Origin: Candidatus Omnitrophota bacterium | GTDB taxonomy: Bacteria; Omnitrophota; Gorgyraeia; B26-G9 | Direction of reading: 5' to 3' | Assembly: GCA_043826565.1 (NCBI GenBank) | Contig: JBDRPX010000028.1 | Location: 16,607 to 80,606 of the forward strand | DNA: 64,000 bases | In this document: piece after piece, positions 29,559 to 61,446 of the stretch | Position numbering within the stretch: the stretch's first letter is position 1 | How the letters are laid out: every line of letters starts with the position of its first letter | The notes under the pieces: generated by a model | Told to the model about the DNA's origin: nothing | The model's database searches: none | The model's input: the letters and a program-made list of their open reading frames with translations, nothing else | Made by a program: the position numbers and the translations under genes

Positions 29559-29745
29559 AAATCCTCCTTTCAAGTGTTTATAATTTAGGACAATATATTT
29601 AATTTATTATACTAATTTATCATTTCCGGGGCAAGAAATAACTGGAATATAAAAAAAGTATTTATGGTAAAAGGTTTACTTTTGTGTTAGAATTTTTAAT
29701 GGATTTATAAACTTTAAATTTGTGTCGGATACATGGAGGTTTAAG

Positions 29746-44236: not shown

Positions 44237-45265
44237 ATGATAGGAAGAAAAAATATGCAGCAGTTACGACGTGACCCAATTTTAGGCCGATGGATTATTG
44301 TGCATTATGACCGGGAAAAAGGGCCTCAGGATTATCAGGTTGAAGCCGTTAAAAAAGATGACAAAATGAAAGTCTGTCCTTTTTGCCCGGGACATGAGGT
44401 AAAAACTCCCGTGGAAATATATGTAGATAGAACTCCGAAAGCGCATTCGGAAGGCCCGGATTGGAATTTACGGGTTATTGCTAATAAATTTCCCGCGCTT
44501 TGTGTCGAAGGTGATTTATGCCGGGAGGGGTTGGGGATATATGATCAAATGAACGGCGTGGGAGCGCATGAAGTTATTATCGAGACACCGTATCATGATA
44601 AGGACCTGGGTGATTTACCGGTAGCGGATGTTAAAAAAGTCATCCTGGCTTATAAACACAGGTGTCTTGATCTAAAGAGAGATACCCGTTTTCAATATAT
44701 ATTAATATTTAAAAATCATGGAGCTCCGGCCGGAGCTTCTTTAGAACATTCCCATTCCCAGCTGATCGTTCTGCCGATTATGCCGAAAAAGGTTTTGCAG
44801 GCAATACAGGGGGCGGAGAATTATTATAAGTTTAAAGAACGCTGTGTGTATTGCGATATTATCCATCAGGAATTAGAGGATAAAGAGAGGCTGGTTTACG
44901 AGAATAAAAATTTTGTCGCTTTTGCTCCGTTTGCTTCCAGTTCGCCGTTTGAGACCTGGATAATTCCCAAGCGCCATGTTTCCCATTTTTATAATATTTC
45001 CGACGAACTTATCGAAGATTGCGCGGATATGCTGCGGGAGATTCTCTGGAGATTAAAAAAAGTATTGACAGACCCGCCATTTAATTTTATTATTAACACT
45101 GCTCCTATTCAGCGTGAAGAGGAGCTTAGTTTTTATCACTGGCACATAGAGATAGTGCCAAAACTCACCAGAGCTGCCGGGTTTGAATGGGGAACCGGTT
45201 TTTATATAAACCCGAGCCCGCCGGAAAAAGCTGCGCAATGGTTGCGCGAAGCAAAGAAAAAATAG
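44237..45265 (+). CDS. GalT/HIT-like nucleotidyltransferase, tandem paralog
   Basis: 'CPFCPGHE', 'HWHIEIVP', 'GAHEVIIETPYH'. About 45% identity to the upstream copy by eye. Confidence 0.7.
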   Translation: MIGRKNMQQLRRDPILGRWIIVHYDREKGPQDYQVEAVKKDDKMKVCPFCPGHEVKTPVEIYVDRTPKAHSEGPDWNLRVIANKFPALCVEGDLCREGLGIYDQMNGVGAHEVIIETPYHDKDLGDLPVADVKKVILAYKHRCLDLKRDTRFQYILIFKNHGAPAGASLEHSHSQLIVLPIMPKKVLQAIQGAENYYKFKERCVYCDIIHQELEDKERLVYENKNFVAFAPFASSSPFETWIIPKRHVSHFYNISDELIEDCADMLREILWRLKKVLTDPPFNFIINTAPIQREEELSFYHWHIEIVPKLTRAAGFEWGTGFYINPSPPEKAAQWLREAKKK

Positions 45266-46391: not shown

Positions 46392-46483
46392 AAACTGAAA
46401 GTTTCCAGTGGCGAGCCTCGCCGTGGGTAGCTTCAAAGAGTTAACCCGGCGGGGACATAGATGTTAATAACTAATATATATAA

Positions 46484-46517
46484 GTGCAGAGAATTGATTT
46501 TTCTCTGCACTTTTTTT
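46484..46517 (+). terminator. Rho-independent terminator downstream of gap
   Basis: Stem GTGCAGAGAA / TTCTCTGCAC (10 bp perfect), 7-nt loop, followed by TTTTTTT. Confidence 0.75.
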
Positions 46518-46729
46518 ATAGTACTTTTTTATAGTACTTCTTTTTCAGCAACAGGTTAATGCTTGTTTTGGTAGGATATATTACTTGACAATAATTACAA
46601 TATATGCTATTTTAAAATTGTTTAAAATAGGGGAGTTGTATACGCTCTCAGGAAAATAAAATCCTGCCTTTTCCAGGGATGGGCGTGTTTATATTTAAAT
46701 GGAGTTAATATCTTTTTAATGATTTAGGA

Positions 46730-46981
46730 GTGGACATGGACGATGTATTGACCGCAATGGATGTGGTTAAAGAATTCAACATTTCATATCAAACATTAAA
46801 TCACTATACCAATTTTGGTCTGCTTAACGCGGTTAAAAAAAGAGGCTTAGGCAATAAGCGTTTATATGCCGCATCCGAAGTCAGAAGTAATCTCCAGAGA
46901 ATCGATCAATTAAAAGAAAAAGGATATCCTTTAAAAATCATTGTAGATATCATAAAAGAAAATGATGTTTTACCGGTATAA
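46730..46981 (+). CDS. Small MerR-like HTH DNA-binding protein
   Basis: 'LTAMDVVKEFNISYQTLNHYTNFGLL' is HTH-like. RBS GGAGTGGAC. 83 aa. Low confidence on family. Confidence 0.4.
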   Translation: MDMDDVLTAMDVVKEFNISYQTLNHYTNFGLLNAVKKRGLGNKRLYAASEVRSNLQRIDQLKEKGYPLKIIVDIIKENDVLPV

Positions 46982-47126: not shown

Positions 47127-47987
47127 ATGAGTTACTATAAAATACTGGGGTTTAATAAAGAGCCGTTTTCTACCAGCCCTGATCCATCCTTTTTTTATGA
47201 ATCCCGGGATCATGAACGGGCACTAACTAATCTGATGATTGAATTGCGGTTAAAGCGCGGCCTGTCGGTTATTTTGGGAGATGTCGGTACGGGCAAGACG
47301 ACTCTCAGCCGTAAGCTTTATCAGCTGATCAGATCCCAGGAAGGGTTTAAATGTCATATGATCCTTGATCCTGTCTATAGCGATGAGGAGATTTTTTTGA
47401 CTTCTCTGGTCAGGAATTTTGAGGTGGAACCGAATAATTTCGGGCCGGCAATCCTGAATCTTAAAGAAGCATTGGAAAAATTTCTTTATCAGCAGGGCGT
47501 AGAAAAAGATCAGACGGTTGTTTTGATTATCGATGAAGCGCAAAAACTTAATGAGGTAACCTTGGAAGCTTTGCGCGTACTTCTTAATTACGAAACAAAT
47601 GAATTTAAACTCCTGCAGCTTGTCTTGCTGGGACAAATGGAATTACATTCAAAGATTATTAATATCCCTAATTTTATTGATCGGATCAGCTTCAAATACA
47701 CTCTTAATCCGCTTGATGGTGAAGAGGTGCGTCAGATGATCGAGTTTCGCGTGCGTCAAGCCGGATACCAGTCAAATATACATTTGTTCCTTGACCGGGC
47801 CATAAAAGAAATACATCGTCACACCGGAGGTTATCCCCGCCGGATCAATATGCTTTGTCATAAATTGCTTAAGCAGTTGGTTATGAAAAACCAGTTTGTT
47901 GTGGATGAATCATTGGTCAAAGAAGTGGTTGAAGAAGAAACGCGCCAAGGGCTGCAATGGATAAGGCACCCTTCGGTAGTCGCATAA
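47127..47987 (+). CDS. ExeA/GspA/MshM-like AAA ATPase (secretin/pilus assembly accessory)
   Basis: 'PFSTSPDPSFFYESRDHERAL' N-terminus. Walker A 'GDVGTGKTTL'. Walker B 'VVLIIDEAQ'. Typical of the AAA_22 ExeA family. Confidence 0.75.
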   Translation: MSYYKILGFNKEPFSTSPDPSFFYESRDHERALTNLMIELRLKRGLSVILGDVGTGKTTLSRKLYQLIRSQEGFKCHMILDPVYSDEEIFLTSLVRNFEVEPNNFGPAILNLKEALEKFLYQQGVEKDQTVVLIIDEAQKLNEVTLEALRVLLNYETNEFKLLQLVLLGQMELHSKIINIPNFIDRISFKYTLNPLDGEEVRQMIEFRVRQAGYQSNIHLFLDRAIKEIHRHTGGYPRRINMLCHKLLKQLVMKNQFVVDESLVKEVVEEETRQGLQWIRHPSVVA

Positions 47988-48014
47988 CCTCAAAAGGTTT
48001 ATAAAATAATTAAA

Positions 48015-48692
48015 ATGGTAAATAAAGATCCTTCTCCGGAAAAACGTTTATTAAAAATAATTGAAGGCAAACAGGATGAGTCGGCGATAGCTTCTACTTT
48101 GCGGCAGAGCAAAAAATTTATCGCGCCCAGCAGTTTAAGAGGAAGGATGTCTTTTCTAAAGGAGAAGTTTAAACGGGGGAAAAAGTCTCCCCGCCGTGCC
48201 GAGGCTTTTGATGTAAAGAAATTTAATGTATTTTTGCAATGCTGTGTTGTGCTTCTGGTTATTGCGCTGGGAGTAAATGTAACTATGGAAATTATTAGTA
48301 TAAATAAGGATCAATTAATTCCCGTGCCTAAGTTCGGCGCGAACGCGAACGCGGAACCGGCACAGATAGTTTCTTTGCTGCAGCCGCAGGATTACTATCT
48401 GCAAAAGGTAACTGACCGGGATCTTTTTAAATTTGGAGATATTCCGAAGAAAAAGGTGGATTTTAAAGAGGATACTCAGCCAAAAATCTCTAAATTGCAG
48501 AGCATGGTGCAAGGATTAAAACTGGTGGGGATTTCCTGGGGCGAGGTGCCGGATGCTATTATTGAGAACGGGAATCTTAATAAAACATATTTTGTCAAAA
48601 AAGGATCTGGAGTTGAAGATATGCAGGTAAAAGATATTTTAAAAGATATGGTAATTTTGAGTTTTGAAGGGGAAGTTTTTGAATTGAAATGA
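48015..48692 (+). CDS. Bitopic inner-membrane protein with a C-terminal PilP/GspC-like secretin-interaction domain
   Basis: Single TM (CCVVLLVIALGVNVTMEIISI). C-terminal 'LKLVGISWGEVPDAIIENGNLNKTYFVKKGSGVEDMQVKDI...VILSFEGEVFEL' resembles the PilP/GspC HR beta-sandwich. Confidence 0.5.
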   Translation: MVNKDPSPEKRLLKIIEGKQDESAIASTLRQSKKFIAPSSLRGRMSFLKEKFKRGKKSPRRAEAFDVKKFNVFLQCCVVLLVIALGVNVTMEIISINKDQLIPVPKFGANANAEPAQIVSLLQPQDYYLQKVTDRDLFKFGDIPKKKVDFKEDTQPKISKLQSMVQGLKLVGISWGEVPDAIIENGNLNKTYFVKKGSGVEDMQVKDILKDMVILSFEGEVFELK

Positions 48693-50476
48693 GAAAAAAA
48701 ATAGGGGGACTTATAACGCTGTTACTATTGGGGGCTTGCGCAAGAGTAGCGCAGGCTGAGGAGCTTGCTTCGGCAATATTACCTGTGCCGAGTCAGGTGC
48801 AGGTAACTTCTTTAGCGGAAGGTATCTATGGAAAGATTTCTTTAGACCTGCGGCAAATAGATATTAACGATGCCCTAAAATATTTTTCCTTAAAAAGCGG
48901 ATTAAATATTATTACTTCCAAAATGGTCAGCGGCCGGGTAACCTTGGTTGTTGAGGATGTTCCGGTAAAAGATGTTTTTGATATTATGCTGCGTTCAAAC
49001 GGATTGGCCTATGATAAGACCGGGGATATCTATAATGTAATGACCCAGGAGGAATACAAGACACTTTACGGAAAAAGGTTTTCTGATGTTCGTGTCGTGG
49101 AAGTGTTCCGGTTACAATACGCTCTTCCGGAACAGGCCTTTGCCATGCTTGATACTATTAAAAGTGAAATCGGACGGATATTAGTCGATACTGAATCAGG
49201 TACGGTTTTATGTCTGGATTCGCCGGGAAAAATTGAACAGATGAAAGCGGCTCTCGTGGGATTTGAAAGAGAAACATTGGTCAAAGTTTTTGATCTAAAC
49301 TATGCCAAAGCCGCGGTTGTCGAGGAGCAGTTAAAAAGCCGGCTTGATGAAAAAAAAGTTGGTTCGATCAAAGCGGATGTTCGTTCAAACCGGGTGGTTG
49401 TTCAGGCTTTGCCGGACCGGATGACGGAAATTGAAAAATTAATTAAAGCTTTGGATACTAAAACAAGAGAGGTTTTAATTGACGCTAAGGTTTTAAAGGT
49501 TAAAGTCGGCGATGAACTTAATGTTGGGGTAAGATGGGAAGGGCTTGCTGAGGTGGTCGGAGGTGATGATGGGCTGACTTATTTGGGGTCGTCTCCCTTT
49601 AGCGCTGTTCAGGCAACAACCGATGCCTGGCGTTCGCGAAAACAAGTTTATCAGGATGTCGGCTATGCCGGGTCCTATGCTAGTAGCGGAACAACTTCCA
49701 ATTATTCATCGGCAGCTTCGGCACTGGGTATAAATAATTTGCATTATGGGGTTATCGGATCAAGCGATATCGATGCTGTCCTAACTTATTTAAAAACAGA
49801 AAATAATGCTAAGATACTTTCTAATCCTAAAATTGCGGTAACGAATAATCAGGAAGCGCGTATCCATGTGGGAGAACGTCAGGCTTATGTTACGACTACG
49901 ACGACCAGCGGACAGTCAACCAGTACTATTTCCGAAGATGTAAATTTTATTGATATCGGAATTCAGATGCATGTTATCCCGACGATCAGTGAGAACGGGT
50001 TTGTCAATTTACAGATCAAAACGGAAATCAGCAGTGTGGTGGACGTATTAATTACTCCCACGGAAAACCGGATCCCGATCGTGGATACCTCACTTGCCGA
50101 AACAACTGTTTTGATCAAGGAAGGCAAGACTGTTATTATCGGAGGTTTACGCCGCGAAGAAGTATCCCAGACAGTTAGGCGGGTTCCGATCTTGAGTAAA
50201 ATCCCGATATTGGGTTTCTTGTTTAAGGAAAAATCAGAAAATAAATATACTACGGAATTGCTGATCATGATTACGCCGATTGTAATCACCGGAGATGTAT
50301 TAGTCTTGGAAGAAGGCAAGAAGATCGGGGTTCCGGAGATAAAAGAAGCTCAGGAATATAAAGAGCTTGAAAGAAGGAAAAAAGAAATTGAAACTTATCA
50401 GCCGGTACCAAGTGATTTAGGGGGCATGAATTTTAAAAAGTTCAAAGTATATGAGGGGATACGGGATAAGGACTAA
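48689..50476 (+). CDS. Secretin (type II secretion/type IV pilus PilQ/MshL-like outer-membrane channel), copy A
   Basis: Signal peptide. N-terminal N0/N1-like repeats. C-terminal secretin domain 'ILSNPKIAVTNNQEARIHVGERQAYVTTTT...TVLIKEGKTVIIGGL...VPILSKIPILGFLFK'. ATGA overlap with the upstream gene. Confidence 0.85.
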   Translation: MRKKIGGLITLLLLGACARVAQAEELASAILPVPSQVQVTSLAEGIYGKISLDLRQIDINDALKYFSLKSGLNIITSKMVSGRVTLVVEDVPVKDVFDIMLRSNGLAYDKTGDIYNVMTQEEYKTLYGKRFSDVRVVEVFRLQYALPEQAFAMLDTIKSEIGRILVDTESGTVLCLDSPGKIEQMKAALVGFERETLVKVFDLNYAKAAVVEEQLKSRLDEKKVGSIKADVRSNRVVVQALPDRMTEIEKLIKALDTKTREVLIDAKVLKVKVGDELNVGVRWEGLAEVVGGDDGLTYLGSSPFSAVQATTDAWRSRKQVYQDVGYAGSYASSGTTSNYSSAASALGINNLHYGVIGSSDIDAVLTYLKTENNAKILSNPKIAVTNNQEARIHVGERQAYVTTTTTSGQSTSTISEDVNFIDIGIQMHVIPTISENGFVNLQIKTEISSVVDVLITPTENRIPIVDTSLAETTVLIKEGKTVIIGGLRREEVSQTVRRVPILSKIPILGFLFKEKSENKYTTELLIMITPIVITGDVLVLEEGKKIGVPEIKEAQEYKELERRKKEIETYQPVPSDLGGMNFKKFKVYEGIRDKD

Positions 50477-50480
50477 AATT

Positions 50481-52874
50481 ATGAGAAAAAATAAAAGTAT
50501 TTATCGAGCAAGTTTACCTGCCGGGGGAATGCTGATCATTACCGCATTACTTATGGTTTTTGCGGTTAATGGATATGGTCAATCCGCGCCGGAAAAACCG
50601 CAGGCACAGGTATCTTCTATTGTCGCGACAATAGAACAGAATATGTCGGCTTTGGCCAAAGAATTAGATGATAACAAAAAAGCTTATGAACAGCTCAAGG
50701 AAGAGTATGATAAAAAACAGCAGGATTTAAGTTTTAGCCAGGATGAGGTAAAGGAATTAGAGAAGAATTTTGAAGAGCTAAAACAGGATTTTAAACAGAA
50801 ATCGCAGGCATTATTAGAAAAAAAGGCTGATGAGGTCGGAGCATACAAGGCGCAGATAGACAAATTGCAAAATGAAATAGACGAGAGAGGAAAAACAATT
50901 GTCCGGAAAAAGGAAGAGATCATATCTTTAGAAACCCAGCTGAAAGAAGAAAAGAGAATACTAGAGGACAAAGAAAAATCGTTAAAAGCAAAAGATTTAG
51001 AGATCAATGATCTGCAAAAACAATTAAGCGACTTTGACCGGCTGCTTAAAGAAGCACATAATTCCATTAATGACCTCAGGCAGGAGGATACCAAAAAAGA
51101 TAATCTGGTTGAATCTTTTCGCGCGGAAATGCATAAAAAACAAAAAGAATTTGATGATAATATGCAAAATGAACGAGGCCAGTTCCAAAAGAGGCTTTTT
51201 GATGAGGAGCAGAAAGAAGAGAAATTAAGAAGACAAAATGCCGACCAATTAAAGGAGTATACTAAACAGCTTCAGGATAAAGATGATTTAATGTCCGCGC
51301 AGAAAGAGATGCTGGTTAAAAAAGACAAGCTTATTAATGATCTTAATATTAGTTTGGATAAGCAAAAACTGGATAATGAAAATATTCGTAAACAGAATAA
51401 TATTCTGGCCGAAGAAAAGAAACAGCTGCTGCTTAATATTTCTGTTTTTGAAGAGGAGATCGGTAAGCAGGGGTCTTTATTGAAGAATGGCAAACAGAAT
51501 TTGACTGTCGCGCAAAAGGAACAAGAGTATCTTCAGAAGGAGCAGCAGGATCTTAAAAAGAGATATGAAGAATTACACAATGAAAAAGAGGTTTATTTGA
51601 GCAAAAGTCAGTATCTTGAAAAACAGGTAGAAGAAAGAGATAAAAAATTGCAGGCATTGCGGGATGATATCCAGAAACAGGTAACTTTGCTGCATCAGCA
51701 GCTTGGCGGGGTGGTTCAGCAGACTCAGGACCCGCAGAATAAACAAGCATTGAAAGATAAACGGGATGAGCTTGAACAGATAAATCTTTCCTCTAAGCAG
51801 CAGGAGCGGGAATTACGCAAACAAATAGATGATCTTAAATCAGAAAAGCAGGATCTTTTTAATCAGAGTAATAATCTGATCCAGGAAAAACTTCAGATTC
51901 TGGCCAGGATGGTCCAGCTGGAAGCGCAGCAAAAGGCTTCCGGAGCTTCGGATGGAGCTGTCGGTATGTCTGAGGAAGAAATTGCCTATGTAAAACATGA
52001 ATTAGAGAATCTTAATAAATCATTAGATAAAAAAGCAAGTGAACTGGGTAAAGTCCAGGAAGAAAATTATAAGCTGTTTAAAGAAAAAGAGGAGCTGCGA
52101 AAACTTGTTAATGATTGCAATGATCAGATAACTTCTCAAAAGAAGCAGCTTAATGACCTGCAGGAAATGATGCGGAATAATGAGAATGAAAGCCAGTTGA
52201 AAGTTCGCGATATGAGAAAAGACCTTGATGGTCAAAGGGCTGAGTTCCAGAGAGTTTCTAAAGAATTGGAGAAAAAGAATGCTTTATATGATAAGGATAT
52301 AAAGAAATACTTAGCCCGCTGTGAAGATTTCCGGGGTAAATTAGCGGCTTCCCAGGAGAAATATGATACGATGAAAGCTGATTACGATATTTATGTAAAA
52401 CGTATCAAAGAAGTATACTCAGAGCAGCGCAAATTAGAAGGAAGGGTCCAAGAGCAGATTAAACTTCTTAATACATACTCAAAAACTATTGACGAGCTGA
52501 GCGCGGACAACAAGTCTATGGAAACGGAAAATGAGCGGCTGGGGTTGTTGTTAAAGACAATTCCGCAGAAATTAAATACTTTGGAAAGTGATGTCGCCCA
52601 ATTACGCAAACAAAATTCTACTTTACATTATAACTTAGGGGTTTTTCATACGCAGCGCCAGGAATATCCGCAGGCAATCGCGGAATTTAAACAGTCTTTA
52701 AAATATAATCCCAATGACGCGAGTACCCATTATAATATGGGCGTTATTTATTCGCAGTATTTAGTTGATGAATCCAGTGCGGTTATGCATTTTAGGCATT
52801 ATCTGTCGCTTGATCCTAATGATAAAGATTCTCAGCGGGCAAAAGAATATATTTTGCTCTGGGGAAGTAAATAA
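50481..52874 (+). CDS. Membrane-anchored long coiled-coil protein with a C-terminal TPR domain (MshN/PilF-like partner candidate), copy A
   Basis: N-terminal TM/signal anchor. About 650 aa of K/E/Q-rich heptad coiled coil. C-terminal 'LHYNLGVFHTQRQEYPQAIAEFKQSLKYNPNDASTHYNMGVIY' TPR units. Confidence 0.6.
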   Translation: MRKNKSIYRASLPAGGMLIITALLMVFAVNGYGQSAPEKPQAQVSSIVATIEQNMSALAKELDDNKKAYEQLKEEYDKKQQDLSFSQDEVKELEKNFEELKQDFKQKSQALLEKKADEVGAYKAQIDKLQNEIDERGKTIVRKKEEIISLETQLKEEKRILEDKEKSLKAKDLEINDLQKQLSDFDRLLKEAHNSINDLRQEDTKKDNLVESFRAEMHKKQKEFDDNMQNERGQFQKRLFDEEQKEEKLRRQNADQLKEYTKQLQDKDDLMSAQKEMLVKKDKLINDLNISLDKQKLDNENIRKQNNILAEEKKQLLLNISVFEEEIGKQGSLLKNGKQNLTVAQKEQEYLQKEQQDLKKRYEELHNEKEVYLSKSQYLEKQVEERDKKLQALRDDIQKQVTLLHQQLGGVVQQTQDPQNKQALKDKRDELEQINLSSKQQERELRKQIDDLKSEKQDLFNQSNNLIQEKLQILARMVQLEAQQKASGASDGAVGMSEEEIAYVKHELENLNKSLDKKASELGKVQEENYKLFKEKEELRKLVNDCNDQITSQKKQLNDLQEMMRNNENESQLKVRDMRKDLDGQRAEFQRVSKELEKKNALYDKDIKKYLARCEDFRGKLAASQEKYDTMKADYDIYVKRIKEVYSEQRKLEGRVQEQIKLLNTYSKTIDELSADNKSMETENERLGLLLKTIPQKLNTLESDVAQLRKQNSTLHYNLGVFHTQRQEYPQAIAEFKQSLKYNPNDASTHYNMGVIYSQYLVDESSAVMHFRHYLSLDPNDKDSQRAKEYILLWGSK

Positions 52875-52887
52875 AAACAGAATACAG

Positions 52888-54711
52888 ATGACAGAATACA
52901 GAAAACAGAAATTAAATATCCTGATAATATATTTTGCTCTGGCTTTATGCGGCAGTGTGTGCCGGGCAGATGAGAATAAAGAATATGCCGCTTTGCCAGT
53001 ACCCGCGGCTAATGGAATGATCTCAAATTTGGCGATAACGAAAGAGCGGATATCTTTGGAGTTGCGGGATATAGATATTAAAGACGCGCTTAAATATTTA
53101 GCATCCAAGGCCGAGATTAACATTGTTCCGACAAATCAGGTTTCCGGACGCATAACCTTAATGATTAAAGATGCGCCGATTGATGATGTTTTTGAAATGG
53201 TTATCCGTTCCAACGGGCTGGCGTATGATAAGATTGGAAGTATTTACAATGTTATGACGGAAACAGAATACAAGGAACGCTATGGACAGGCGTTTGATGA
53301 CCGCAGGCATCTTGAGGTCTTTCATCTTAAATATGTAATACCGGAACAGGCGTATTCAATAATTGATTCTATCAAAAGCACAATCGGAAAAGTTTTAATA
53401 GAGAACGATTCCGGGACGATTTTAGTTTTGGATACCCCGGAGAAATTAGAAGAAATAAGAAAGACCATTAAATCCTTAGAGCGCAAAGGTACTGTACGGA
53501 TGTTTGATTTAAAGTATGCCAACGCAGAAGATGTCGCAAAACAGCTTAAGTCACAGCTGGATAAGAAAAAAGTAGGGTCTATCCGGGCGGATCAGCGTAC
53601 GAATCAGGTGATTGTGCAGACTTTACCGGAACGTATGGACAATATTGCCAAATTGATCGAAGGCTTAGATCAAAAGACAAAAGAAGTTTTGATCCAGGCC
53701 CGGATCATCCAGATAAAACTTACGGATAATCTTAGTGAAGGCGTGGAATGGGAAGGATTGTTTGAGCTCTCAAAAGGCAGTAACAGCACGACGTATCTGG
53801 GCAGTACCCCGGTCGCGGCTGTGGGCAGTCCGGTGGATACTTGGCGCTCAAGACAGCAGGTGCTTGCCGATACCGGATATGTCGGGTCATATCCGTTTAG
53901 CGGAACATCCACGGATTATGCCAGCGGGCAGAGCAGTGTCGGGACCGAACAAATGCATGTCGGAGTTGTCGGCGAGAGTGATTATGATGTATTGATAAAA
54001 TATTTAAAAACATTAGGGCATGTGCAGATATTATCTAATCCAAAACTGGCGGTAACGAATAATCAGCAGGCACGTGTGCATGTCGGCGAGCGGCAGGCAT
54101 ATATAACTACGGTTACTACGGCCGGACAGACGACAACCACAGTTTCTGAAGAAGTTACTTTTCTTGACGTGGGTTTGCAGTTGTTTATTACTCCGACGAT
54201 TAACGATCAGGGATATGTAACATTAAATATTAAACCGGAGATAAGCAGTGTGGTGGGTACATTGTTAACCGCGCAGAATAACAAGATTCCGATCATTGAT
54301 ACTTCCACAGCGGAAACTACGGTCATGGTCAAGGATGGAGCAACAGTTGTAGTCGGAGGATTGCGCAGAGAGGAAGAGACATCTAGTTCCCGGCGCATGC
54401 CGATACTGGGAAGTATCCCTTTTTTGGGGAATTTATTTAAGACTGAAGATCGAGGAAAATCACGTAATGAATTATTAATCATGGTTACCGCGCATATTAT
54501 CGAAGGGGATGAGTTGATCACCGGCGATGACCGTGATTTTGGAAGTAAATCACATGAAAAATATCAGGAATATAATTTAATGACTAACGAATCGGATTTA
54601 ACAGAGTATGAGAAAGAACAGAAAAAAACATTAGAGCAGAAGATGTACCAGGAATATCCGGAATATAAGGAAGATAAAGAATTTTACCCCGACTTAAAAC
54701 CATTAAAATAA
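52888..54711 (+). CDS. Secretin, copy B (paralog of 48689..50476)
   Basis: Start ATG 52888 with signal peptide (MTEYRKQKLNILIIYFALALCGSVCRA). Collinear with copy A at about 50% identity ('ILSNPKLAVTNNQQARVHVGERQAYITTVTT', 'VVVGGLRREEE', 'MPILGSIPFLGNLFK'). Confidence 0.85.
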   Translation: MTEYRKQKLNILIIYFALALCGSVCRADENKEYAALPVPAANGMISNLAITKERISLELRDIDIKDALKYLASKAEINIVPTNQVSGRITLMIKDAPIDDVFEMVIRSNGLAYDKIGSIYNVMTETEYKERYGQAFDDRRHLEVFHLKYVIPEQAYSIIDSIKSTIGKVLIENDSGTILVLDTPEKLEEIRKTIKSLERKGTVRMFDLKYANAEDVAKQLKSQLDKKKVGSIRADQRTNQVIVQTLPERMDNIAKLIEGLDQKTKEVLIQARIIQIKLTDNLSEGVEWEGLFELSKGSNSTTYLGSTPVAAVGSPVDTWRSRQQVLADTGYVGSYPFSGTSTDYASGQSSVGTEQMHVGVVGESDYDVLIKYLKTLGHVQILSNPKLAVTNNQQARVHVGERQAYITTVTTAGQTTTTVSEEVTFLDVGLQLFITPTINDQGYVTLNIKPEISSVVGTLLTAQNNKIPIIDTSTAETTVMVKDGATVVVGGLRREEETSSSRRMPILGSIPFLGNLFKTEDRGKSRNELLIMVTAHIIEGDELITGDDRDFGSKSHEKYQEYNLMTNESDLTEYEKEQKKTLEQKMYQEYPEYKEDKEFYPDLKPLK

Positions 54712-54714
54712 AAG

Positions 54715-55695
54715 GTGGCTAAAGTGAGACTACTAATAATTACAATTGTTGTAAGTTGTATCATGGCGATGCCCGGAAATGTATTCAGTCAAGCAGCGGA
54801 TGATCATGTGAAGATAAAGGCGGAGTATGAAAAGCTGCGTAAGGAAAATGAAGACATCTCCAATGACCGGGATAATTTACGGGCTCAGATGAAAGTGCTT
54901 TTGCAATATAAAAGTGAGATCGTCAAGGCTCAGGAGATGGTAAATCAGACGAAGATGGAGCGCAATCAGTGGGAAACCCAGAAAAAACTGCTGCAGAATG
55001 AGAATCAAAATCTGCAAGATAGGATGAATCTGCTTAAAGCGCAGATAGATGACCATGAATCTGAACGGCTGCAGTTTGAGGCAGAAAGAGATAATATGAG
55101 AAAGTCTTTGTCTAAATCCAAAGCTGGATATATAATAGTAGACGATCTCAAAAGAAAAAACAGTGAAGAAAAAAGGAATAATAGCCTATTGCAAAAACAG
55201 ATTGCCGGCTTAGAGAAAAGAGTAAAAACGCTTACTGAAGAATCAGGAAAAATGGAGACAATTGAGGAGGTATTGCGCAGCCAGTTAAAGGAGCTTAAAG
55301 ATAAATACGCCCAGGCGCAGAAGAAAAACAAATCTTTTGAGAAAAAACTAGAACAGCAGCCGAAGCGGTACGCGGAAGTTGCCCGGGAGAATAAAGTTTT
55401 ATTAAAGCGCACGGCGTTGATGCATTATAACCTAGGGGTCTTTTACACAAAGGGGAAAGAGTATCCCCGGGCGATTGCGGAATTCGAAAAAGCTGTAGAA
55501 CTTAACCCTGAAGATACTTACGCTTATTTTAATTTAGGGTATATTTACGCGGAACACTATGTGGATAGGCCCAAAGCAATTGATAATTTCCGAAAATATC
55601 TGAGTTTGGCGAAAAAGGAGGATAAAGATGTGGACTGGGTAAAGAGGTATATTCTTACCTGGGAGACTTGGGAAGGTAAAGAGATAACTAAATAA
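54715..55695 (+). CDS. Coiled-coil protein with a C-terminal TPR domain, copy B (shorter paralog of 50481..52874)
   Basis: Signal/TM. Coiled coil. C-terminal 'LMHYNLGVFYTKGKEYPRAIAEFEKAVELNPEDTYAYFNLGYIY' aligns with the copy A C-terminus. The start is uncertain (GTG 54715 or 54724). Confidence 0.6.
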   Translation: MAKVRLLIITIVVSCIMAMPGNVFSQAADDHVKIKAEYEKLRKENEDISNDRDNLRAQMKVLLQYKSEIVKAQEMVNQTKMERNQWETQKKLLQNENQNLQDRMNLLKAQIDDHESERLQFEAERDNMRKSLSKSKAGYIIVDDLKRKNSEEKRNNSLLQKQIAGLEKRVKTLTEESGKMETIEEVLRSQLKELKDKYAQAQKKNKSFEKKLEQQPKRYAEVARENKVLLKRTALMHYNLGVFYTKGKEYPRAIAEFEKAVELNPEDTYAYFNLGYIYAEHYVDRPKAIDNFRKYLSLAKKEDKDVDWVKRYILTWETWEGKEITK

Positions 55696-55734
55696 AAACT
55701 AATTAAGTCGGGGAAAAGAGGAAGGGAGGAAGCA

Positions 55735-56322
55735 GTGAAAAAAACAATTACTTACGGTCTGATAATAATGTGTGTTTTCGTGTTTTCCGCAGTAGACAGC
55801 GGATATGCTTTTTTGGGTAAAAAGAAAACCGAGGAAGCGGAAAGCAAAACGGTAAAAAAGGCAGAAAAAACAGAGGTTCAGGAAATTCAAAAAACTGAGT
55901 CCAAGGTTGAAGAAAAAGCAGTTGAGAAAAAAGATGAAAAAGTCCAGGATAAAGAACGCGCTTTGAAAAAGAAGAAAAAAGCTCAATTGGATAATACAAT
56001 GTGGGATATAACCCTTATCCGTATGTCCGGCGAGGGTAAAAAGAAGTCTGATGTTTTGGTTTTTGAAGAAAACCGTTTTTATTCGCAAGCGTATATGGAT
56101 CAGGGATTTAGCGCAACAAATTATACGTTGAATGTAAAAGAGGAAGAGGCTGTGGTTTGGGAAACAATGCAGACTTCTGCCGGAGAAAAAGTTATTTTCT
56201 GGAGAGGGGAAATTGATCCTAAGTTAAATGATATGCGCGGGGTATTAAGTGTTCAGGTCAGTCCGGGCAAATCAGAAGATTTCTCATTTATTAGTAATGG
56301 TAAGAAGCCTTTTAAAAAATAA
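55735..56322 (+). CDS. Secreted Lys/Glu-rich hypothetical protein
   Basis: GTG start after GGAAGGGAGGAAG. Signal peptide. Charged K/E-rich segment, then a globular C-terminal part. Confidence 0.5.
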   Translation: MKKTITYGLIIMCVFVFSAVDSGYAFLGKKKTEEAESKTVKKAEKTEVQEIQKTESKVEEKAVEKKDEKVQDKERALKKKKKAQLDNTMWDITLIRMSGEGKKKSDVLVFEENRFYSQAYMDQGFSATNYTLNVKEEEAVVWETMQTSAGEKVIFWRGEIDPKLNDMRGVLSVQVSPGKSEDFSFISNGKKPFKK

Positions 56323-56363
56323 CTATAGTTTAAACAGTTTGATCGCAGCAAAAAGAATGCCGA

Positions 56364-57467
56364 ATGCTGAAAATATCCGATATTTTAAAAAAAGCCAAAG
56401 TACGCAAAAATAAAGAGGGGGGGGGGCCTTCTCCCAAACCTGCTGTTCCTGAATCGTCCAAAGCACCGGAATCTAAAAAGGCAGAGATAGCCAGGAGGGT
56501 GAAAAAACATCCTCCGGAAGATACTTTGCCCAAGAAGTCTTCAGGAAAAGAAAAAGCGGTGCCGGTCTTACCGATAGACAGTGATGAAGCCATCGGAAAA
56601 TATGAAACGGCAATAGCATTACTAAAAGATATCATGGAACCTCTGGCGGAAAAAAGAGATGATTTAATAGATGCCGCGGATAATCTGATCGAAAATATTA
56701 TTGAATTGCTTAAAAAAGATGATTCAGCTTTGATGGGGCTTTTTTTTCGGGATTATGAGGTATTAAAGGAGTATGTTTATCAACATTCGATTAATGTATG
56801 TGTTCTGGCCTTAAGGATCGGTTTGAATTTAGAATGTGATTTTGGTCATCTTAAAAAACTGGGGATGGCTGCGCTGCTTCATGATTTGGGCCAGTTAAAG
56901 TTTGAATCACTTGTAAATAAACCGCGGAAGCTTGAACAGAGTGAATATGAAAAAATAAAAAGTCATCCTGCCGTAGGCAGGGATATCTTAAAAAAGTTTG
57001 CGAGAAAATTGGATCTCAAGATTTTAGATGTTATATATCAAGAGCATGAACGGATCAACGGCACCGGATATCCGCAGGGGTTAAGCAAAGATATGATTGC
57101 CGATGACGCTAAACTGATCGGGATGGTTGATGTTTATGAAGCTTTAGTTCATTCCCGCCCGCATCGGTCAAAATTCGGCGGGCATGAAGCTATCCAGATG
57201 ATCATAAAAGAAAAAAGTAGTTTTGAATATAATTTAATAAAGGTTTTAATCGATACCATTGGTTTGTTTCCTCTGGGAACACTGGTCGAGTTAAATACAA
57301 AGGAAATAGGTATCGTCGTCAATCAAAATCCCAAAATGCCATTGAAGCCGATTATTGATATAACTCATAATATCAATAAACAAAAGTTATCGAAACCTAA
57401 GCGCGTCGATTTATCAAAGAATTACGCTATTTATATAAAACAGTGCTTTGATGAGCTTCAGGATTAA
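56364..57467 (+). CDS. HD-GYP-like domain protein (stand-alone, no receiver), with a G10 tract near its 5' end
   Basis: 'LLHDLGQLKF', 'HERINGTGYPQGL' (GYP motif), 'HSRPHRSKFGGHEAIQMI'. N-terminal Lys/Pro-rich low-complexity region. Confidence 0.65.
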   Translation: MLKISDILKKAKVRKNKEGGGPSPKPAVPESSKAPESKKAEIARRVKKHPPEDTLPKKSSGKEKAVPVLPIDSDEAIGKYETAIALLKDIMEPLAEKRDDLIDAADNLIENIIELLKKDDSALMGLFFRDYEVLKEYVYQHSINVCVLALRIGLNLECDFGHLKKLGMAALLHDLGQLKFESLVNKPRKLEQSEYEKIKSHPAVGRDILKKFARKLDLKILDVIYQEHERINGTGYPQGLSKDMIADDAKLIGMVDVYEALVHSRPHRSKFGGHEAIQMIIKEKSSFEYNLIKVLIDTIGLFPLGTLVELNTKEIGIVVNQNPKMPLKPIIDITHNINKQKLSKPKRVDLSKNYAIYIKQCFDELQD

Positions 57468-57470
57468 AAT

Positions 57471-59165
57471 ATGCAAAAATCCCATAAAATCATAACTATT
57501 TTATTTTGCTCTCTACTTGTAGCCAGCGGGTATCTTTTACTGCGGTTTATGATCACAGTCAATTATGTGGGCGAACTCAAAGACAATTATACTGTTTTAT
57601 CGGGAGAAAAAAATGTCCTGAAAAAACAGCTTGAGGCAGAAAAAGAGATTAACGTCGTGCGGGTGAAGAAATTAGAAAATGAGATTGCCGGCTTAAGTAA
57701 TGTTAAAAATATTCAGGATAATCTTGCTCTGACCCAGGAGAAACTTTCCAGTGTTGATAAAGACTTCAAACAAATTAGTCAGGAAAAAAAGCAATTAGAA
57801 CAAACAACCCTGAATTTAAATAACCGCATTAGTAATCTGACCAAGGAATTCACCAAGACTTTAGATCAATTGAAAGCCGTGAGGGAGGAATTGGTAAAAG
57901 CGCAGAGCGGAAGTGCTATGCGAAAGTATGAGAAAGAAATTGAAGGATTAAATGCGCAGCTTGAGCAAAAGGCCGAGCAGATCGTAAAACTGAATAATGA
58001 AATCAAAAAAATAAATGATGAAGTGGTAAATCTGAAGAAAGACGGCACAGAAGCTCACGGTCAAAACAAGGTTTTGGAAAATCAAATTACCCGGCTGGAG
58101 AAAAAAAAGCAAGAACTCCAGTTGAGATACACCAATCTTGAGGAAAGGATGTCCAAGAAGAAAGACCCTACCCTCGGATTAGGAGAGAAGCTGAACAAGC
58201 TTAAGGCGGAACTTTCCGAGAAAGAGAAACAGTTAGCAGAATTAGAAAAGAAAAATTCCCAGGAAGTCGAATATCTGAAAAAAAATCTGGAAATGGCCAG
58301 AGCGGAAAAAGAAACTCTGCAGGCAAATCTTAATAGAGCCGAAGACCGGCTCCGGGAAAAAGATAAATTTGCAGATGAGCTTGAAGAGAAGCTTAAGCGT
58401 TTTGATAAACAGCTTACCCAGCGGGAAGATGAAAGAGATGCTTTAGAAAAAGAAATTGCTCAGCTGAGAAAGACAAAAGTTGAAGTGACCGGAACTCTGC
58501 CGAGAGAAATGGTGCAGTACCAGGAAGAAGGAGCCTTAGATGCCCATGATATGGGTACGATGCAGGAAAAACTGAATAAGGTGTATGCTCTTTATGATAC
58601 CGCTAAGGCGCAAGTAGTTAAGTTCTCGGAACTTCTTATGCAAAAAGAATTGGAGATAGAGAAATCAAAGCAAAGAATTGTTGGTTTAGAGCAGGAGTTA
58701 AGTATGATTAAGGGCGGCGCGGCTTTCTCGGGAACCGGAGAAACTTCCGGTCAGATCGCGGATCTTGTCCAGGTCAAAGCTAAACTTGAGACGCAGTTAC
58801 AATACGAAAAGCAAAAGTATGAAGATATGAATTCTCTATATATTAATTTAAAGAGCCAGGTGGTCCAGGTTACGACACTTCTGACGCGGCGCGAATCCGA
58901 ATTAGATGATAAGAATGAAGAAATCGCAAACTTAAAAAGGGAAATGTTAAGGGTCCAGCAGGAGTATTCCATGGCCCAGCGGGAACTTAAAGATGTTGCA
59001 GAACGTCAGAAGAGAACCTTAGAGGATCTCTCGCGGTCGACGCGCCTGAATTCGACTTTGCAGGAAAACCTTTCATATCGTACAATAACAGCCGAAGATA
59101 GCAAAAAAAGCCATGAAGAAGCGGAGAGATTAAAAAAGGAAATTGAAGTCTTATTAGGTAAATAA
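57471..59165 (+). CDS. Membrane-anchored long coiled-coil protein
   Basis: N-terminal TM (IITILFCSLLVASGYLLLRFMITV), then about 500 aa of heptad-repeat K/E/Q/L-rich sequence. Confidence 0.55.
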   Translation: MQKSHKIITILFCSLLVASGYLLLRFMITVNYVGELKDNYTVLSGEKNVLKKQLEAEKEINVVRVKKLENEIAGLSNVKNIQDNLALTQEKLSSVDKDFKQISQEKKQLEQTTLNLNNRISNLTKEFTKTLDQLKAVREELVKAQSGSAMRKYEKEIEGLNAQLEQKAEQIVKLNNEIKKINDEVVNLKKDGTEAHGQNKVLENQITRLEKKKQELQLRYTNLEERMSKKKDPTLGLGEKLNKLKAELSEKEKQLAELEKKNSQEVEYLKKNLEMARAEKETLQANLNRAEDRLREKDKFADELEEKLKRFDKQLTQREDERDALEKEIAQLRKTKVEVTGTLPREMVQYQEEGALDAHDMGTMQEKLNKVYALYDTAKAQVVKFSELLMQKELEIEKSKQRIVGLEQELSMIKGGAAFSGTGETSGQIADLVQVKAKLETQLQYEKQKYEDMNSLYINLKSQVVQVTTLLTRRESELDDKNEEIANLKREMLRVQQEYSMAQRELKDVAERQKRTLEDLSRSTRLNSTLQENLSYRTITAEDSKKSHEEAERLKKEIEVLLGK

Positions 59166-59239
59166 ATAATGATTACATCGATTGAATACAGATTACACAG
59201 ATTAAATATAAGTTTATCGAATAGAGTTATGGTGATGGA

Positions 59240-60139
59240 ATGATCAGGAAAGTTAAGAAATATATTACTGTTACGATGATGGTATCTATCCTTTCTGCGG
59301 GGGGAATTTGTCCGGCACAAGATTTTAAAATGGAAGCTGACGCGCATTACCAAAAGGGGTTGATTTTATATCATCAAGGCAAATATGATCAAGCCCAGGA
59401 AGAATTTAGCCAAGCCAAAGAATTGCTTAAAAAAAACGAAGCCGAAAAGCCGGCTGTTTTAGAAAAAAAAACAGAAGTGATTAAAAAACAGACGAAAGTG
59501 ATCGAACTTAAGGCAGAAGATAAAAAAGAAGATACTGTGCCTAAAAAGAAACCGGTTATTGAATATACTATCGGAGCGGGTGATGAGCTGGTTGTTTCGG
59601 TATGGGAAAACGCGGATCTTGATAGAGAAACGATTGTGCGTCCGGATGGTAAGATATCTTTTGCGCTTATTGGAGATATGAAAGCTGCCGGGCTTACGAT
59701 TGAACAGTTTAAGAATAATTTAACCGAAGCTCTTCAAGAATATATCCGTTATCCTCAGGTATCTGTTTACATAAAAAAAATGGGTGGGGAAAAAGTCATT
59801 GTTTTAGGAGAAGTGCATGACCCGGGAGTGTATGAGGTTACCGGCCGCAGGACGATTTTAGAAGCTATCGGCATGGCCGGGGGATTTACCAAAGAAGCGG
59901 TGCTGAAAAGTGTGATTTTGGTCAAAGGCGGTGTGGATCAGCCTGTGCCCAAAAAGCTTAATCTTACCCGGGCTTTGTATAAAGGTGAAAGTATTGAGAA
60001 TGTCGTTCTTGAATCTGAAGATATCGTTTATGTGCCGAGTAAGGTTATTTCCGACGTAAGCTATTTCCTTAAAACAATTCTTGATCCGATCACATCCAGT
60101 ATTTATATAAATAAAGAAGTTCGTACTTGGGGAGAGTAA
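59240..60139 (+). CDS. Polysaccharide export protein (Wza/Poly_export plus SLBB domains)
   Basis: Signal peptide. 'YTIGAGDELVVSVWENADLDRETIVRPDGKISFALIGDMKAAGLTIEQFKNNLTEAL' is the Poly_export/PES motif. A second SLBB-like 'YVPS' segment. Confidence 0.75.
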   Translation: MIRKVKKYITVTMMVSILSAGGICPAQDFKMEADAHYQKGLILYHQGKYDQAQEEFSQAKELLKKNEAEKPAVLEKKTEVIKKQTKVIELKAEDKKEDTVPKKKPVIEYTIGAGDELVVSVWENADLDRETIVRPDGKISFALIGDMKAAGLTIEQFKNNLTEALQEYIRYPQVSVYIKKMGGEKVIVLGEVHDPGVYEVTGRRTILEAIGMAGGFTKEAVLKSVILVKGGVDQPVPKKLNLTRALYKGESIENVVLESEDIVYVPSKVISDVSYFLKTILDPITSSIYINKEVRTWGE

Positions 60140-60142
60140 TAA

Positions 60143-61446
60143 TGGAAGATGTGAAGTTAGTAACTAAAAATATTAAATCATTTGCTTCAAATAAAGAAAT
60201 TGAATCTGTATTTCGTCCGATGAAATTAATTCACCATGCCCTTATGAAAAAGCAGTGTCCGGGCAATGACTACTTAGGCTGGCTGGATTTGCCTTCTAAA
60301 TTACCGGCAGCGCTGATCAAGGATATCGAGCAAACCGCAAAAAAGATAAGAAAACAGGCCGATGCTTTTGTCTGCCTGGGGATTGGCGGGTCATATCTGG
60401 GAGCTAAAGCGGCTATAGAATTTTTAAAACCGACATTTGCTAATGAACTGAATACGGAAAAACCGAAGATTTATTTTGCCGGACATAATTTAAGTGCGGA
60501 TTATCTCGCGGATCTATTTAGCGTATTAAAGAACAAAAAGATCGTGGTTAATGTAATATCAAAATCAGGCACAACTACTGAGACTGCGGTAGTATTCAGG
60601 ATCATTAAGCAGTATATGGAAAAGCTCTATGGTAAAAAGAAATTAAAAGACAGGATTATTTGCACGACGGACCAATCAAAGGGAGCTTTACTTAAATTAG
60701 CCAAGGATGAAGGATTTAAAACTTTTGTGATTCCGGATGATGTGGGCGGCAGGTTTTCTGTGCTTACTCCGGTGGGGCTTTTACCGATTGCTGTAGCCGG
60801 GATCAATATTCGCGAGCTTTTAAAAGGTGCGGCTGATTTTGAAAAAAAATGCAATAGTTTAACCTTGCGCAATAATCCGGCATATCAATACGCGGCGATA
60901 AGACATATTCTTTATAAAAAAGGAAAAGTTATTGAGATATTATCATCTTTCCATCCAGCGCTTCATTATATCTCGGAATGGTGGAAACAGCTTTTTGGCG
61001 AAAGTGAAGGCAAGGATAATAAGGGGGTTTTTCCGGCATCATGTGATTTTACTACAGATCTGCATTCTTTAGGGCAGATAATTCAGGAAGGACAACGTAA
61101 TATATTTGAAACATTTATGGTCATAAATAAAACTTCGGCAAAATGCAGTATTCCCAAAGACAAAGAAAATCTGGACGGTTTAAACTATTTGGCGGGTAAG
61201 GATATTGAATTTGTCAATCGTAAGGCTTATGAGGCCACTGCCAGTGCGCATTATGACGGAGAAGTGCCGAATATGACCATTGAAATACCTTCACGTAATG
61301 CCTATTCTCTGGGGCAATTATTTTATTTATTCGAAAAGGCGATCGCGATGTCCGGATTACTTAGCGGCGTGAATCCGTTTAACCAGCCGGGCGTAGAAGC
61401 TTATAAAAAGAAAATGTTTAAGCTGCTGGGCAAACCGGGAACATAA
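60143..61446 (+). CDS. pgi: Glucose-6-phosphate isomerase
   Basis: RBS GGGGAGAG then ATG 60143. 'CLGIGGSYLGAKAAIEF', 'VISKSGTTTETAV', 'FGESEGKDNKG', 'VNPFNQPGVEAYK' are PGI family motifs. Confidence 0.85.

Follow-up and report, generated by a model that had tools for sequence, protein, structure and literature searches.

Several described systems pair a secretin with dedicated accessory proteins. In the operon of the mannose-sensitive haemagglutinin (MSHA) pilus, MshL, MshM and MshN are a secretin, an ExeA-like ATPase and a tetratricopeptide repeat (TPR) protein, respectively. Secretin genes are often encoded apart from the motors (pilQ versus pilBCD). In type IVa pili (T4aP), PilQ has the TPR protein PilF, PilW or Tgl, and in Tad systems RcpA has TadD; in both, the TPR protein is needed for secretin assembly. 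Type II secretion systems (T2SS) can have a different set of helpers: in Dickeya, the homology-region (HR) domain of GspB/OutB binds the N0 domain of the secretin, attaches the pore to the inner membrane and acts together with a cognate ATPase or pilotin; in other bacteria the GspB-type HR protein works with the ATPase GspA (PMC9239104). Here we describe a locus that resembles these systems in parts and matches none of them as a whole. It lies in a 64,000-nucleotide stretch of a Candidatus Omnitrophota bacterium (contig JBDRPX010000028.1, positions 16,607 to 80,606 of the forward strand), referred to below as the window.

The gene cluster is real and is conserved in the sampled members of Omnitrophota, an uncultivated phylum, and it contains two ancient paralogous secretins, each with a coiled-coil/TPR partner of its own. 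It also encodes assembly, signalling and polysaccharide-export proteins. The components are known, and their arrangement is new relative to the literature searched: the double-secretin operon is undescribed in the Omnitrophota papers covered, and combining Omnitrophota or Omnitrophica with secretin or PilQ returned nothing specific. An original prediction, made from the letters of the DNA, had delimited ten genes as a duplicated secretin module linked to a Wza-like exporter. The list of open reading frames (ORFs), the translations and the Pfam and NCBIfam scans agree with all ten in position and domain content, and the cluster has to be extended by one gene, the MerR-like gene at its 5′ end. 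The members are as follows.

46730..46981, + strand: MerR-family helix-turn-helix (HTH) protein, 83 aa, BldC/HspR-like (MerR_1, E=1.8e-8; HspR and BldC matches weak)
47127..47987, + strand: AAA ATPase, GspA/ExeA/MshM-like, 286 aa (AAA_22, 69.8 bits)
48015..48692, + strand: bitopic inner-membrane HR protein, 225 aa, with a putative C-terminal HR domain of the GspC/GspB/PilP type
48689..50476, + strand: secretin A, 595 aa (signal peptide, STN/N0, two Secretin_N domains, Secretin at 154.5 bits, C-terminal tail of about 60 aa)
50481..52874, + strand: large secreted coiled-coil protein, 797 aa, with a C-terminal domain of three TPRs (TPR_11, E=1.2e-10)
52888..54711, + strand: secretin B, 607 aa (Secretin at 160.8 bits; 51% identical to A)
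54715..55695, + strand: small coiled-coil/TPR protein, secreted, 326 aa, paired with secretin B
55735..56322, + strand: secreted lysine/glutamate (K/E)-rich protein, 195 aa (signal peptide, K/E/P-rich linker, helix, eight-stranded beta barrel)
56364..57467, + strand: predicted HD-GYP-type cyclic-dinucleotide phosphodiesterase without a receiver domain (HD_5, 79.7 bits)
57471..59165, + strand: membrane-anchored coiled-coil protein, 564 aa (N-terminal transmembrane segment, heptad coverage 71%)
59240..60139, + strand: truncated outer-membrane polysaccharide export (OPX) protein of the Wza family (signal peptide, one TPR, K/E-rich linker, polysaccharide export sequence [PES] domain, one SLBB domain)

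BLASTP comparison with the window proteins served to map related loci in two long contigs, 24 species-representative genomes and 80 metagenome loci, the last recovered with an alignment of the TPR domain. Gene order is kept in the 24 genome loci and in about 35 long metagenome loci, all of them from Omnitrophota where the source is named. Where the contig suffices, the order is MerR-like gene, AAA ATPase (or a PrsA/SurA-like gene), HR protein, secretin A, large coiled-coil/TPR protein, secretin B, small coiled-coil/TPR protein, 195-aa beta-barrel protein, HD-GYP protein, anchored coiled coil and OPX protein. The MerR-like gene is first in every related locus whose contig extends that far. A neighbour-joining tree was built from 24 secretins in first and 19 in second position; the A and B sequences form separate clades in it with a bootstrap value of 100/100, and the internal branching of the two clades is largely parallel. 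The C-terminal domains of the large and small TPR partners also separate at 100/100. Because secretins and partners each split in this way, the duplication took in the whole module of secretin plus partner and predates the divergence of the sampled Omnitrophota, and both copies have been kept in most loci.

Deeper-branching lineages depart from this order in four ways. They carry a second MerR-like gene (75 aa) 5′ of secretin B, the AAA gene is moved to, or duplicated on, the 3′ side of the 195-aa gene, or a PrsA/SurA-like gene takes the place of the upstream AAA gene; the idea that this substitute is a diverged ATPase was rejected. A paralogue of the AAA protein (32-36% identical) is found 3′ of the beta-barrel gene in other lineages, where it replaces or adds to the upstream copy. 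Directly upstream of the cluster, deeper lineages also have genes for a PAS histidine kinase and for a receiver that stands alone (12 and 8 of 102 flank ORFs, respectively).

Single-secretin versions also occur (L028, L085, L092, L096, L098, L099 and L107), consisting of the AAA gene, the HR protein gene, one secretin gene and one or two coiled-coil/TPR genes. These loci often carry a SurA_N and cyclophilin peptidyl-prolyl isomerase (PPIase), and genes H, K or the OPX gene were not detected nearby. In six variant loci, mostly of the single-secretin kind, the module has on its 3′ side a SurA_N-cyclophilin chaperone gene and very large ORFs with signal peptides, whose lengths (at least 1442-2702 aa) are lower bounds as the ORFs run into contig ends (L067:15154-20946, L096:16043-20887, L102:12771-20876, L104:7175-13666, L107:14958-20168 and L108:4796-9121). 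Kre9_KNH immunoglobulin (Ig)-like repeats were found in three of the four giant ORFs scanned with Pfam, and the mature N-terminus is conserved as A-(V/Y/A)-Q-(I/V)-K-(K/R/S)-(V/I)..G. The products may be secretin cargo, or kin of the Omnitrophota 'giant genes'. In L096 a gene with an IS200-like Y1 transposase domain (14287-15552; Pfam match) separates the secretin module from the giant ORF, and the ORF at L067:13552-14691, in the same position, is similar to it at the N-terminus.

The first three genes of the module look like the known GspA, GspB/GspC-HR and secretin assembly triad, as the HR domain and the ATPase fit the GspB/GspA precedent. The order of AAA gene, bitopic HR protein gene and N0-bearing secretin gene is that of GspA/ExeA, GspB/ExeB (OutB) and GspD. 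The AAA protein has Walker A (GDVGTGKTT) and Walker B (LIIDEAQ) motifs, and its orthologues are 63-92% identical. Its best curated model is TIGR03015 (XrtA/PEP-CTERM system-associated ATPase in NCBIfam), which it matches with 188 bits, under the cut-off of 324.5; we take this family to be homologous to GspA and MshM. Among PDB sequences no relative was found. In contrast to GspA/ExeA, the protein appears soluble: the Pfam scan gave no PG_binding match and the translation has no hydrophobic transmembrane segment, leaving the AAA domain alone.

The second member of the triad had been called a PilP/GspC-like bitopic protein, and this description holds. It has one central hydrophobic segment, and its last 60 aa or so are conserved in the alignment. 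A profile of 22 orthologues has a single PDB match, the HR domain of GspC (3oss_C, E=0.0026), in a structure where that domain was crystallised with GspD N0-N1. A faint T2SSB match in the protein and a weak T2SSC match in one orthologue agree with the assignment to the HR type, which is weak but consistent. The likeness to the T2SS does not extend further: no gspC-O genes follow, there is no T2SSE or T2SSF match, and of such an operon only a GspC/GspB-like HR protein, with its weak profile score, is present.

Both secretins are well above the gathering cut-off of the Pfam Secretin family (PF00263, 27.5 bits). Each has two Secretin_N domains (65.4 bits in one copy, 87.6 in the other), and STN scores 32.9 bits in A, above the cut-off of 28.4, and 25.9 bits in B, just below it. 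The ORF of secretin B opens at a TTG at 52765. A classification with curated profiles, suggested along with the original prediction, gave a partial answer. The top-scoring NCBIfam model is PilQ for both copies (TIGR02515: A 245.5, B 263.1; cut-off 284.35), then GspD (TIGR02517: 226.3 and 236.3; cut-off 351.35) and then MshL (TIGR02519: 162.9 and 173.6; cut-off 250.2), so that the copies are nearest to PilQ and below the cut-off of all three. In a comparison with PDB sequences, PilQ of Myxococcus and Pseudomonas are best at 116-141 bits and GspD follows at 102-120, with phage pIV (7ofh, 48-71 bits) and the secretins of type III secretion systems far behind. Among the 120 best secretin relatives, nearly all those with a named source are from Omnitrophota or the Planctomycetes-Verrucomicrobia-Chlamydiae (PVC) group. 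The closest database protein, at 100% identity, is from a Candidatus Omnitrophota metagenome-assembled genome.

N0 and two N domains were detected; GspD has N0-N3 and a pilotin-binding S-domain at the C-terminus. There are two secretins in the locus. PilQ is encoded together with pilMNOP, and many of its members contain AMIN domains. Here the pilMNOP genes are absent, and PilM, PilN, PilO and AMIN found no match in the window or in the recurrent flank families listed (the 25 commonest). The C-terminal extension of about 60 aa has motifs that are conserved separately within clade A and within clade B. An LLGAC motif in secretin A had raised the question of lipoprotein status, which was rejected because the cysteine is not kept in orthologues. 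With MSHA the locus shares the triad of secretin, ExeA-like ATPase and TPR protein; it differs in the MshL scores, in having no mshE, mshG or pilin genes, in the long coiled coils of the TPR proteins and in the duplication of the module.

The partner proteins are the least conventional part of the locus. The gap between secretin B and the small partner is 3 nt; between secretin A and the large partner there is either a 4-nt gap or an overlap, by the choice of start (the ORF opens at 50451, which would give 807 aa). The description of these proteins as coiled coils stood up to measurement of heptad-register coverage, which is 61% in the large protein (11% in its shuffles), 55% in the small one and 71% in the anchored coiled coil (12% in its shuffles), against 11-15% for shuffled sequences overall and 0-13% for five control proteins from the window. 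The claimed similarity of their C-terminal TPR segments is also real: they are 36% identical across 185 aa (E=3e-27). We found no detectable homology of the 564-aa anchored coiled coil to the TPR proteins, and a relationship was rejected.

The two partners are constrained differently. Orthologues of the small one are 310-356 aa long, with a mean identity of 73% in the TPR domain; those of the large one range from 723 to 1628 aa, and only the TPR end is conserved (48% identity). The small partner has a signal peptide ending in AxA|Q and no conserved cysteine, and its C-terminal 110 aa are highly conserved in the orthologue alignment. Given the cleavable signal peptide and the lack of a conserved cysteine, it is predicted not to be a lipoprotein; a VVSC motif that had suggested otherwise was set aside, its cysteine being variable among orthologues. 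In an AlphaFold2 model (pLDDT 82.9), two helices of about 107 aa are joined at a conserved break, and the second continues straight into three TPR repeats and a cap helix. A fold search with the small partner returned generic three-TPR peptide-binding modules, such as CTPR3 and CHIP. Profile and fold searches alike match nothing but generic or designed TPRs and hence do not tell a pilotin-like TPR domain from any other.

Comparison with named TPR proteins sets these partners apart. With T4aP and Tad they share the principle of a secretin with a dedicated TPR protein. Pilotins of PilQ differ in their conserved cysteine, which the partners here lack, and the three or so repeats here stand behind 200-1500 aa of coiled coil; the scores with pilotin models are low (PilW 30.3, cut-off 154; Tgl 33.2, cut-off 225). 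CpoB/YbgF of the Tol-Pal system is periplasmic and has a signal peptide and an N-terminal coiled coil ahead of a C-terminal TPR domain. The likeness to it is in architecture only: by sequence the partners do not belong to that family, their genomic context is another, and the coiled coils here are much longer. These non-lipoprotein coiled-coil/TPR partners of secretins are a previously undescribed class.

The genes that follow copy B add signalling and export functions. The secreted K/E-rich protein was correctly recognised, and to it we can add an eight-stranded beta barrel at the C-terminal end, which is confidently modelled; the protein has no family match, and its profile found nothing among PDB sequences. 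The product of the next gene is an HD-GYP phosphodiesterase as judged by its motifs (LHDLG and GTGYP) and its PDB relatives, which are V-cGAP3, PmGH and PA4781 (5z7c, 4mcw and 4r8z). Two tandem response-regulator/HD-GYP (RpfG-like) genes are present about 15 kb upstream, at 29722-30798 and 30939-31988 of the window. The position of the anchored coiled-coil gene is conserved among the loci.

The last gene had been described as a Wza-like exporter linked to the cluster. The link is real, as the gene follows the anchored coiled-coil gene in 19 mapped metagenome loci and in several genome loci, and membership in the OPX family is clear (Poly_export 79.9 bits, SLBB 46-48 bits, all above cut-offs). 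What has to be amended is the completeness: this protein and its orthologues end about 30 aa past the single SLBB domain with a conserved short tail containing proline, and inspection of the orthologue alignment showed no long C-terminal amphipathic membrane helix. Such a truncated architecture is that of the commonest OPX class, which needs a separate outer-membrane pore (Saidi et al., PMC9603273). Class-3 OPX proteins (Myxococcus WzaX/S/B), which work with Wzp, have the same PES and SLBB domains without the outer-membrane-spanning helix of E. coli Wza (PMC9603273). The protein here differs from them in its N-terminal TPR and K/E-rich linker and in its surroundings, where no adjacent porin gene was seen and the neighbouring outer-membrane proteins are the secretins. 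With TIGR03027 it scores 116 bits, under the cut-off of 180. An XrtA/PEP-CTERM system is not indicated: TIGR03015 and TIGR03027 are both below their cut-offs, and no exosortase family is among the Pfam matches of the window ORFs.

The genes 3′ of the OPX gene vary between lineages. In L039 (16018-19401) and L062 (16843-20261), two distant lineages, genes for a Wzc-type co-polymerase/BY-kinase (Wzz, GNVR and AAA_31) and a Wzy_C protein follow directly, giving a Wza-Wzc-Wzy cassette at the 3′ end of the secretin cluster. A DegT sugar aminotransferase and a PMT_2 glycosyltransferase are found there in L075, and radical-SAM/B12 enzymes in L042 and L079. In the window the OPX gene is followed by a gene for glucose-6-phosphate isomerase (PGI), and then by a Kdo-transferase fusion and LexA.

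Three further features bear on the limits of the transcription unit.

46482..46512, no strand: intrinsic-terminator-like hairpin, bidirectional (12-bp stem with 5 G-C pairs, then a T run)
46585..46613, + strand: best sigma-70-like promoter match of the region (TTGACA-17-TATTTT, extended TG, 10/12 matches)
60142..61446, + strand: PGI, abutting the cluster (PGI, E=1.2e-25)

The hairpin closes the upstream gene for glyceraldehyde-3-phosphate dehydrogenase (GAPDH), and the promoter match is the likely start of the unit, as judged by its fit to the consensus. All the genes downstream of the MerR-like gene are on one strand, spaced 3-74 nt apart or overlapping. With the terminator and promoter-like site upstream and this tight spacing, the transcription unit probably begins with the MerR-like gene and ends with the OPX gene. 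PGI directly adjoins the cluster only in the window's own lineage (L031, L033 and L036) and for this reason is probably no part of the system.

The original prediction had also drawn attention to what is missing, and on this the searches agree. A Pfam scan of every window ORF of at least 150 aa found no ATPase or platform protein of a T2SS or type IV pilus (T4P) and no PilMNO, and searching all six frames for prepilin motifs turned up no pilin. The absence of PilB/GspE ATPase, platform and pilin genes, first stated for the cluster, thus holds for the whole 64-kb window. To the right, a 9.4-kb Logan contig that reaches about 4 kb past the window end has no pilus genes. Motor, platform and pilin families are also missing among the recurrent families in the flanks of more than 50 related loci. 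A conventional pilus set next door was therefore not found, and the cluster is no textbook T2SS, T4P or MSHA operon.

We prefer, with middling confidence, the view that the operon supplies the outer-membrane and periplasmic half for one or two machines of the type IV filament class (T4aP and/or T2SS-like). Every part that could be identified belongs to the outer membrane, the periplasm, the assembly or the regulation of secretin-based machines, which makes two channels and scaffolds encoded here, with the energy and filament parts elsewhere, the simplest account. By analogy with the T2SS, the HR domain would dock on the N0 domain of a secretin and so tie the channel to the inner membrane, and the AAA ATPase would aid assembly in the manner of GspA/GspB. 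The TPR domains may bind the clade-specific C-terminal tails of their cognate secretins, a relationship like that of pilotin and S-domain without a lipid anchor. The coiled coils could act as a scaffold or spacer in the periplasm; the small one, of about 2 x 16 nm, is constrained in length and the large one free to vary. The motor, platform and pilins of the pilus or pseudopilus would be encoded elsewhere in the genome. Control would be through cyclic dinucleotides and a two-component system, as suggested by the MerR-like HTH and HD-GYP proteins and, in other lineages, the PAS histidine kinase and receiver. The truncated OPX protein would place exopolysaccharide under the same control as the apparatus, and on the best reading the operon's transcript also carries the genes for a cyclic-dinucleotide phosphodiesterase and a Class-3-like OPX protein.

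Other observations fit this partnership with a filament machine. T4aP are reported in nearly all Omnitrophota genomes and Tad in some, and T2SS-like loci are reported elsewhere in the genomes (PMC10066038; bioRxiv 10.1101/2023.11.21.568195). Genes for SurA/PrsA-like or cyclophilin chaperones within variant loci fit the biogenesis of outer-membrane proteins, and giant signal-peptide proteins just downstream in six variant loci fit secretins that release large proteins. The small TPR module resembles peptide-binding three-TPR domains.

Several points weigh against it. The partnership is inferred: more than 50 loci show no linkage of the cluster to a gene for a motor, platform protein or pilin. 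Both secretins score under the curated PilQ, GspD and MshL cut-offs, and the TPR proteins are predicted non-lipoproteins that fall far under the pilotin models. If the T4aP loci of Omnitrophota carry a PilQ of their own, both secretins would be left without a known client. The T2SS-like loci beside giant genes in this phylum are reported to have gspE, gspF and a PPIase and already to have their own gspD (bioRxiv 10.1101/2023.11.21.568195). Finally, a pure pilus or T2SS role leaves the constant presence of an OPX gene unexplained. The truncated OPX protein without a nearby porin gene, together with the unconstrained length of the large partner, keeps less conventional readings alive.

In the most far-reaching of these, the locus would encode a trans-envelope machine specific to Omnitrophota, as far as searched, whose secretins act without a linked type IV filament motor, as a conduit for the truncated OPX protein and/or in extruding or anchoring the coiled-coil/TPR and giant Ig-repeat proteins. 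We consider this improbable.

A narrower version, which we also judge unlikely, is a composite polysaccharide exporter, in which the OPX protein would pass the polymer to the adjacent secretin, standing in for a Wzp-type beta-barrel porin, with the anchored coiled-coil protein and the TPR proteins as a bridge across the envelope. To our knowledge no secretin conducts polysaccharide. The OPX gene is nonetheless the last of the cluster in 19 mapped metagenome loci, and its product stops about 30 aa after the SLBB domain, an architecture reported to need a separate outer-membrane pore (PMC9603273). No beta-barrel porin family is among the 25 commonest flank families, although a rare porin could escape such a listing, and a Wzp porin could be encoded elsewhere. 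The Wzc-type and Wzy_C genes of L039 and L062 and the DegT and PMT_2 genes of L075 agree with polysaccharide export, whereas the window has no Wzc or Wzy genes and continues with PGI and the Kdo-transferase fusion. The HD-GYP gene would suit an exopolysaccharide system, for which cyclic-di-GMP control is typical, but the adjacency may reflect mere co-regulation of pili and exopolysaccharide, and the GspA/GspB-like genes indicate ordinary secretin biogenesis.

The original prediction had moved from the missing pilins and ATPases to an uncharacterised export or anchoring apparatus. As stated, this step is not supported, because motors are often encoded apart and the triad is already known. The corresponding hypothesis, which we hold to be quite unlikely, is a self-contained apparatus in which the coiled-coil/TPR proteins are cargo or surface fibre of their cognate secretins, with the AAA protein as sole energy source and no pilus machinery. 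It draws on the lack of motor and pilin genes in or near the loci (window scans and recurrent flank families), on coiled-coil genes that lie within a few bases of their secretin genes or overlap them, and on the large protein, whose span of 723-1628 aa with only the TPR end conserved is hard to square with a fixed periplasmic distance. The small partner, in contrast, keeps tightly to a length of 310-356 aa, which is what a structural spacer would show. We know of no secretin that works without an inner-membrane machine, the exception being phage pIV, which has pI/pXI. The AAA protein is a soluble cytoplasmic ATPase whose only membrane partner is the HR protein, and GspA-type ATPases are assembly factors rather than secretion motors (PMC9239104).

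The two remaining explanations deserve almost no credence. A remnant of a filamentous-phage or mobile-element secretin is suggested by the occurrence of secretins in inoviruses and by pIV among the PDB matches, but pIV scores well below PilQ and GspD, no phage genes are present, and the chromosomal context is syntenic across the phylum. A recent segmental duplication or assembly artefact, with a copy B devoid of distinct function, would account for the adjacency and similar architecture of the modules, and is contradicted by their 51% identity, by orthologues of each copy in the same order in dozens of genomes, and by the 100/100 splits of secretins and partners with congruent subtrees.

The stakes differ between these readings. 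Omnitrophota are uncultivated, ultra-small and thought to attach to or prey on other cells, so that surface machinery is central to them, and the published discussion that we found deals only with T4aP, Tad and the T2SS-like loci next to giant genes. The present operon is among the most conserved envelope loci traced across the sampled members of the phylum. If its secretins serve distant pilus or T2SS motors, it would represent a new way of assembling and scaffolding secretins; should they act with the OPX protein or with the giant secreted proteins, it would widen the range of known secretin transport; and a motor-less trans-envelope machine would be a new surface organelle for ultra-small, probably host-attached bacteria. 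As it stands, the locus is a secretin module with novel accessory proteins and no categorically new system.

Some other features of the window are worth recording. GC skew is positive in all 2-kb bins from 1 to 64000 and almost all genes are on the + strand, which suggests that the whole window is on one leading-strand replichore. Neither Rfam families nor tRNA genes were found across the 64 kb. At 2262-9758 there is a gene for a secreted protein of 2498 aa, with eight FlgD_ig repeats, six CHU_C repeats and other Ig domains, which is not homologous to the giant ORFs of the variant loci. On its 3′ side are genes for a PD40 beta-propeller, a further FlgD_ig protein and a toxin-like RHS-repeat protein of 1406 aa with DUF6531 (coordinates 10664-11788 and 11788-16008). 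An AbiEii-type nucleotidyltransferase toxin gene is located at 27739-28566; the 209-aa ORF before it has no family match and may encode the antitoxin. Closer to the cluster, tandem GalT/HIT-like paralogues of the galactose-1-phosphate uridylyltransferase family (43059-44078 and 44237-45265) lie 5′ of the GAPDH gene and are syntenic in the closest relatives (L001).

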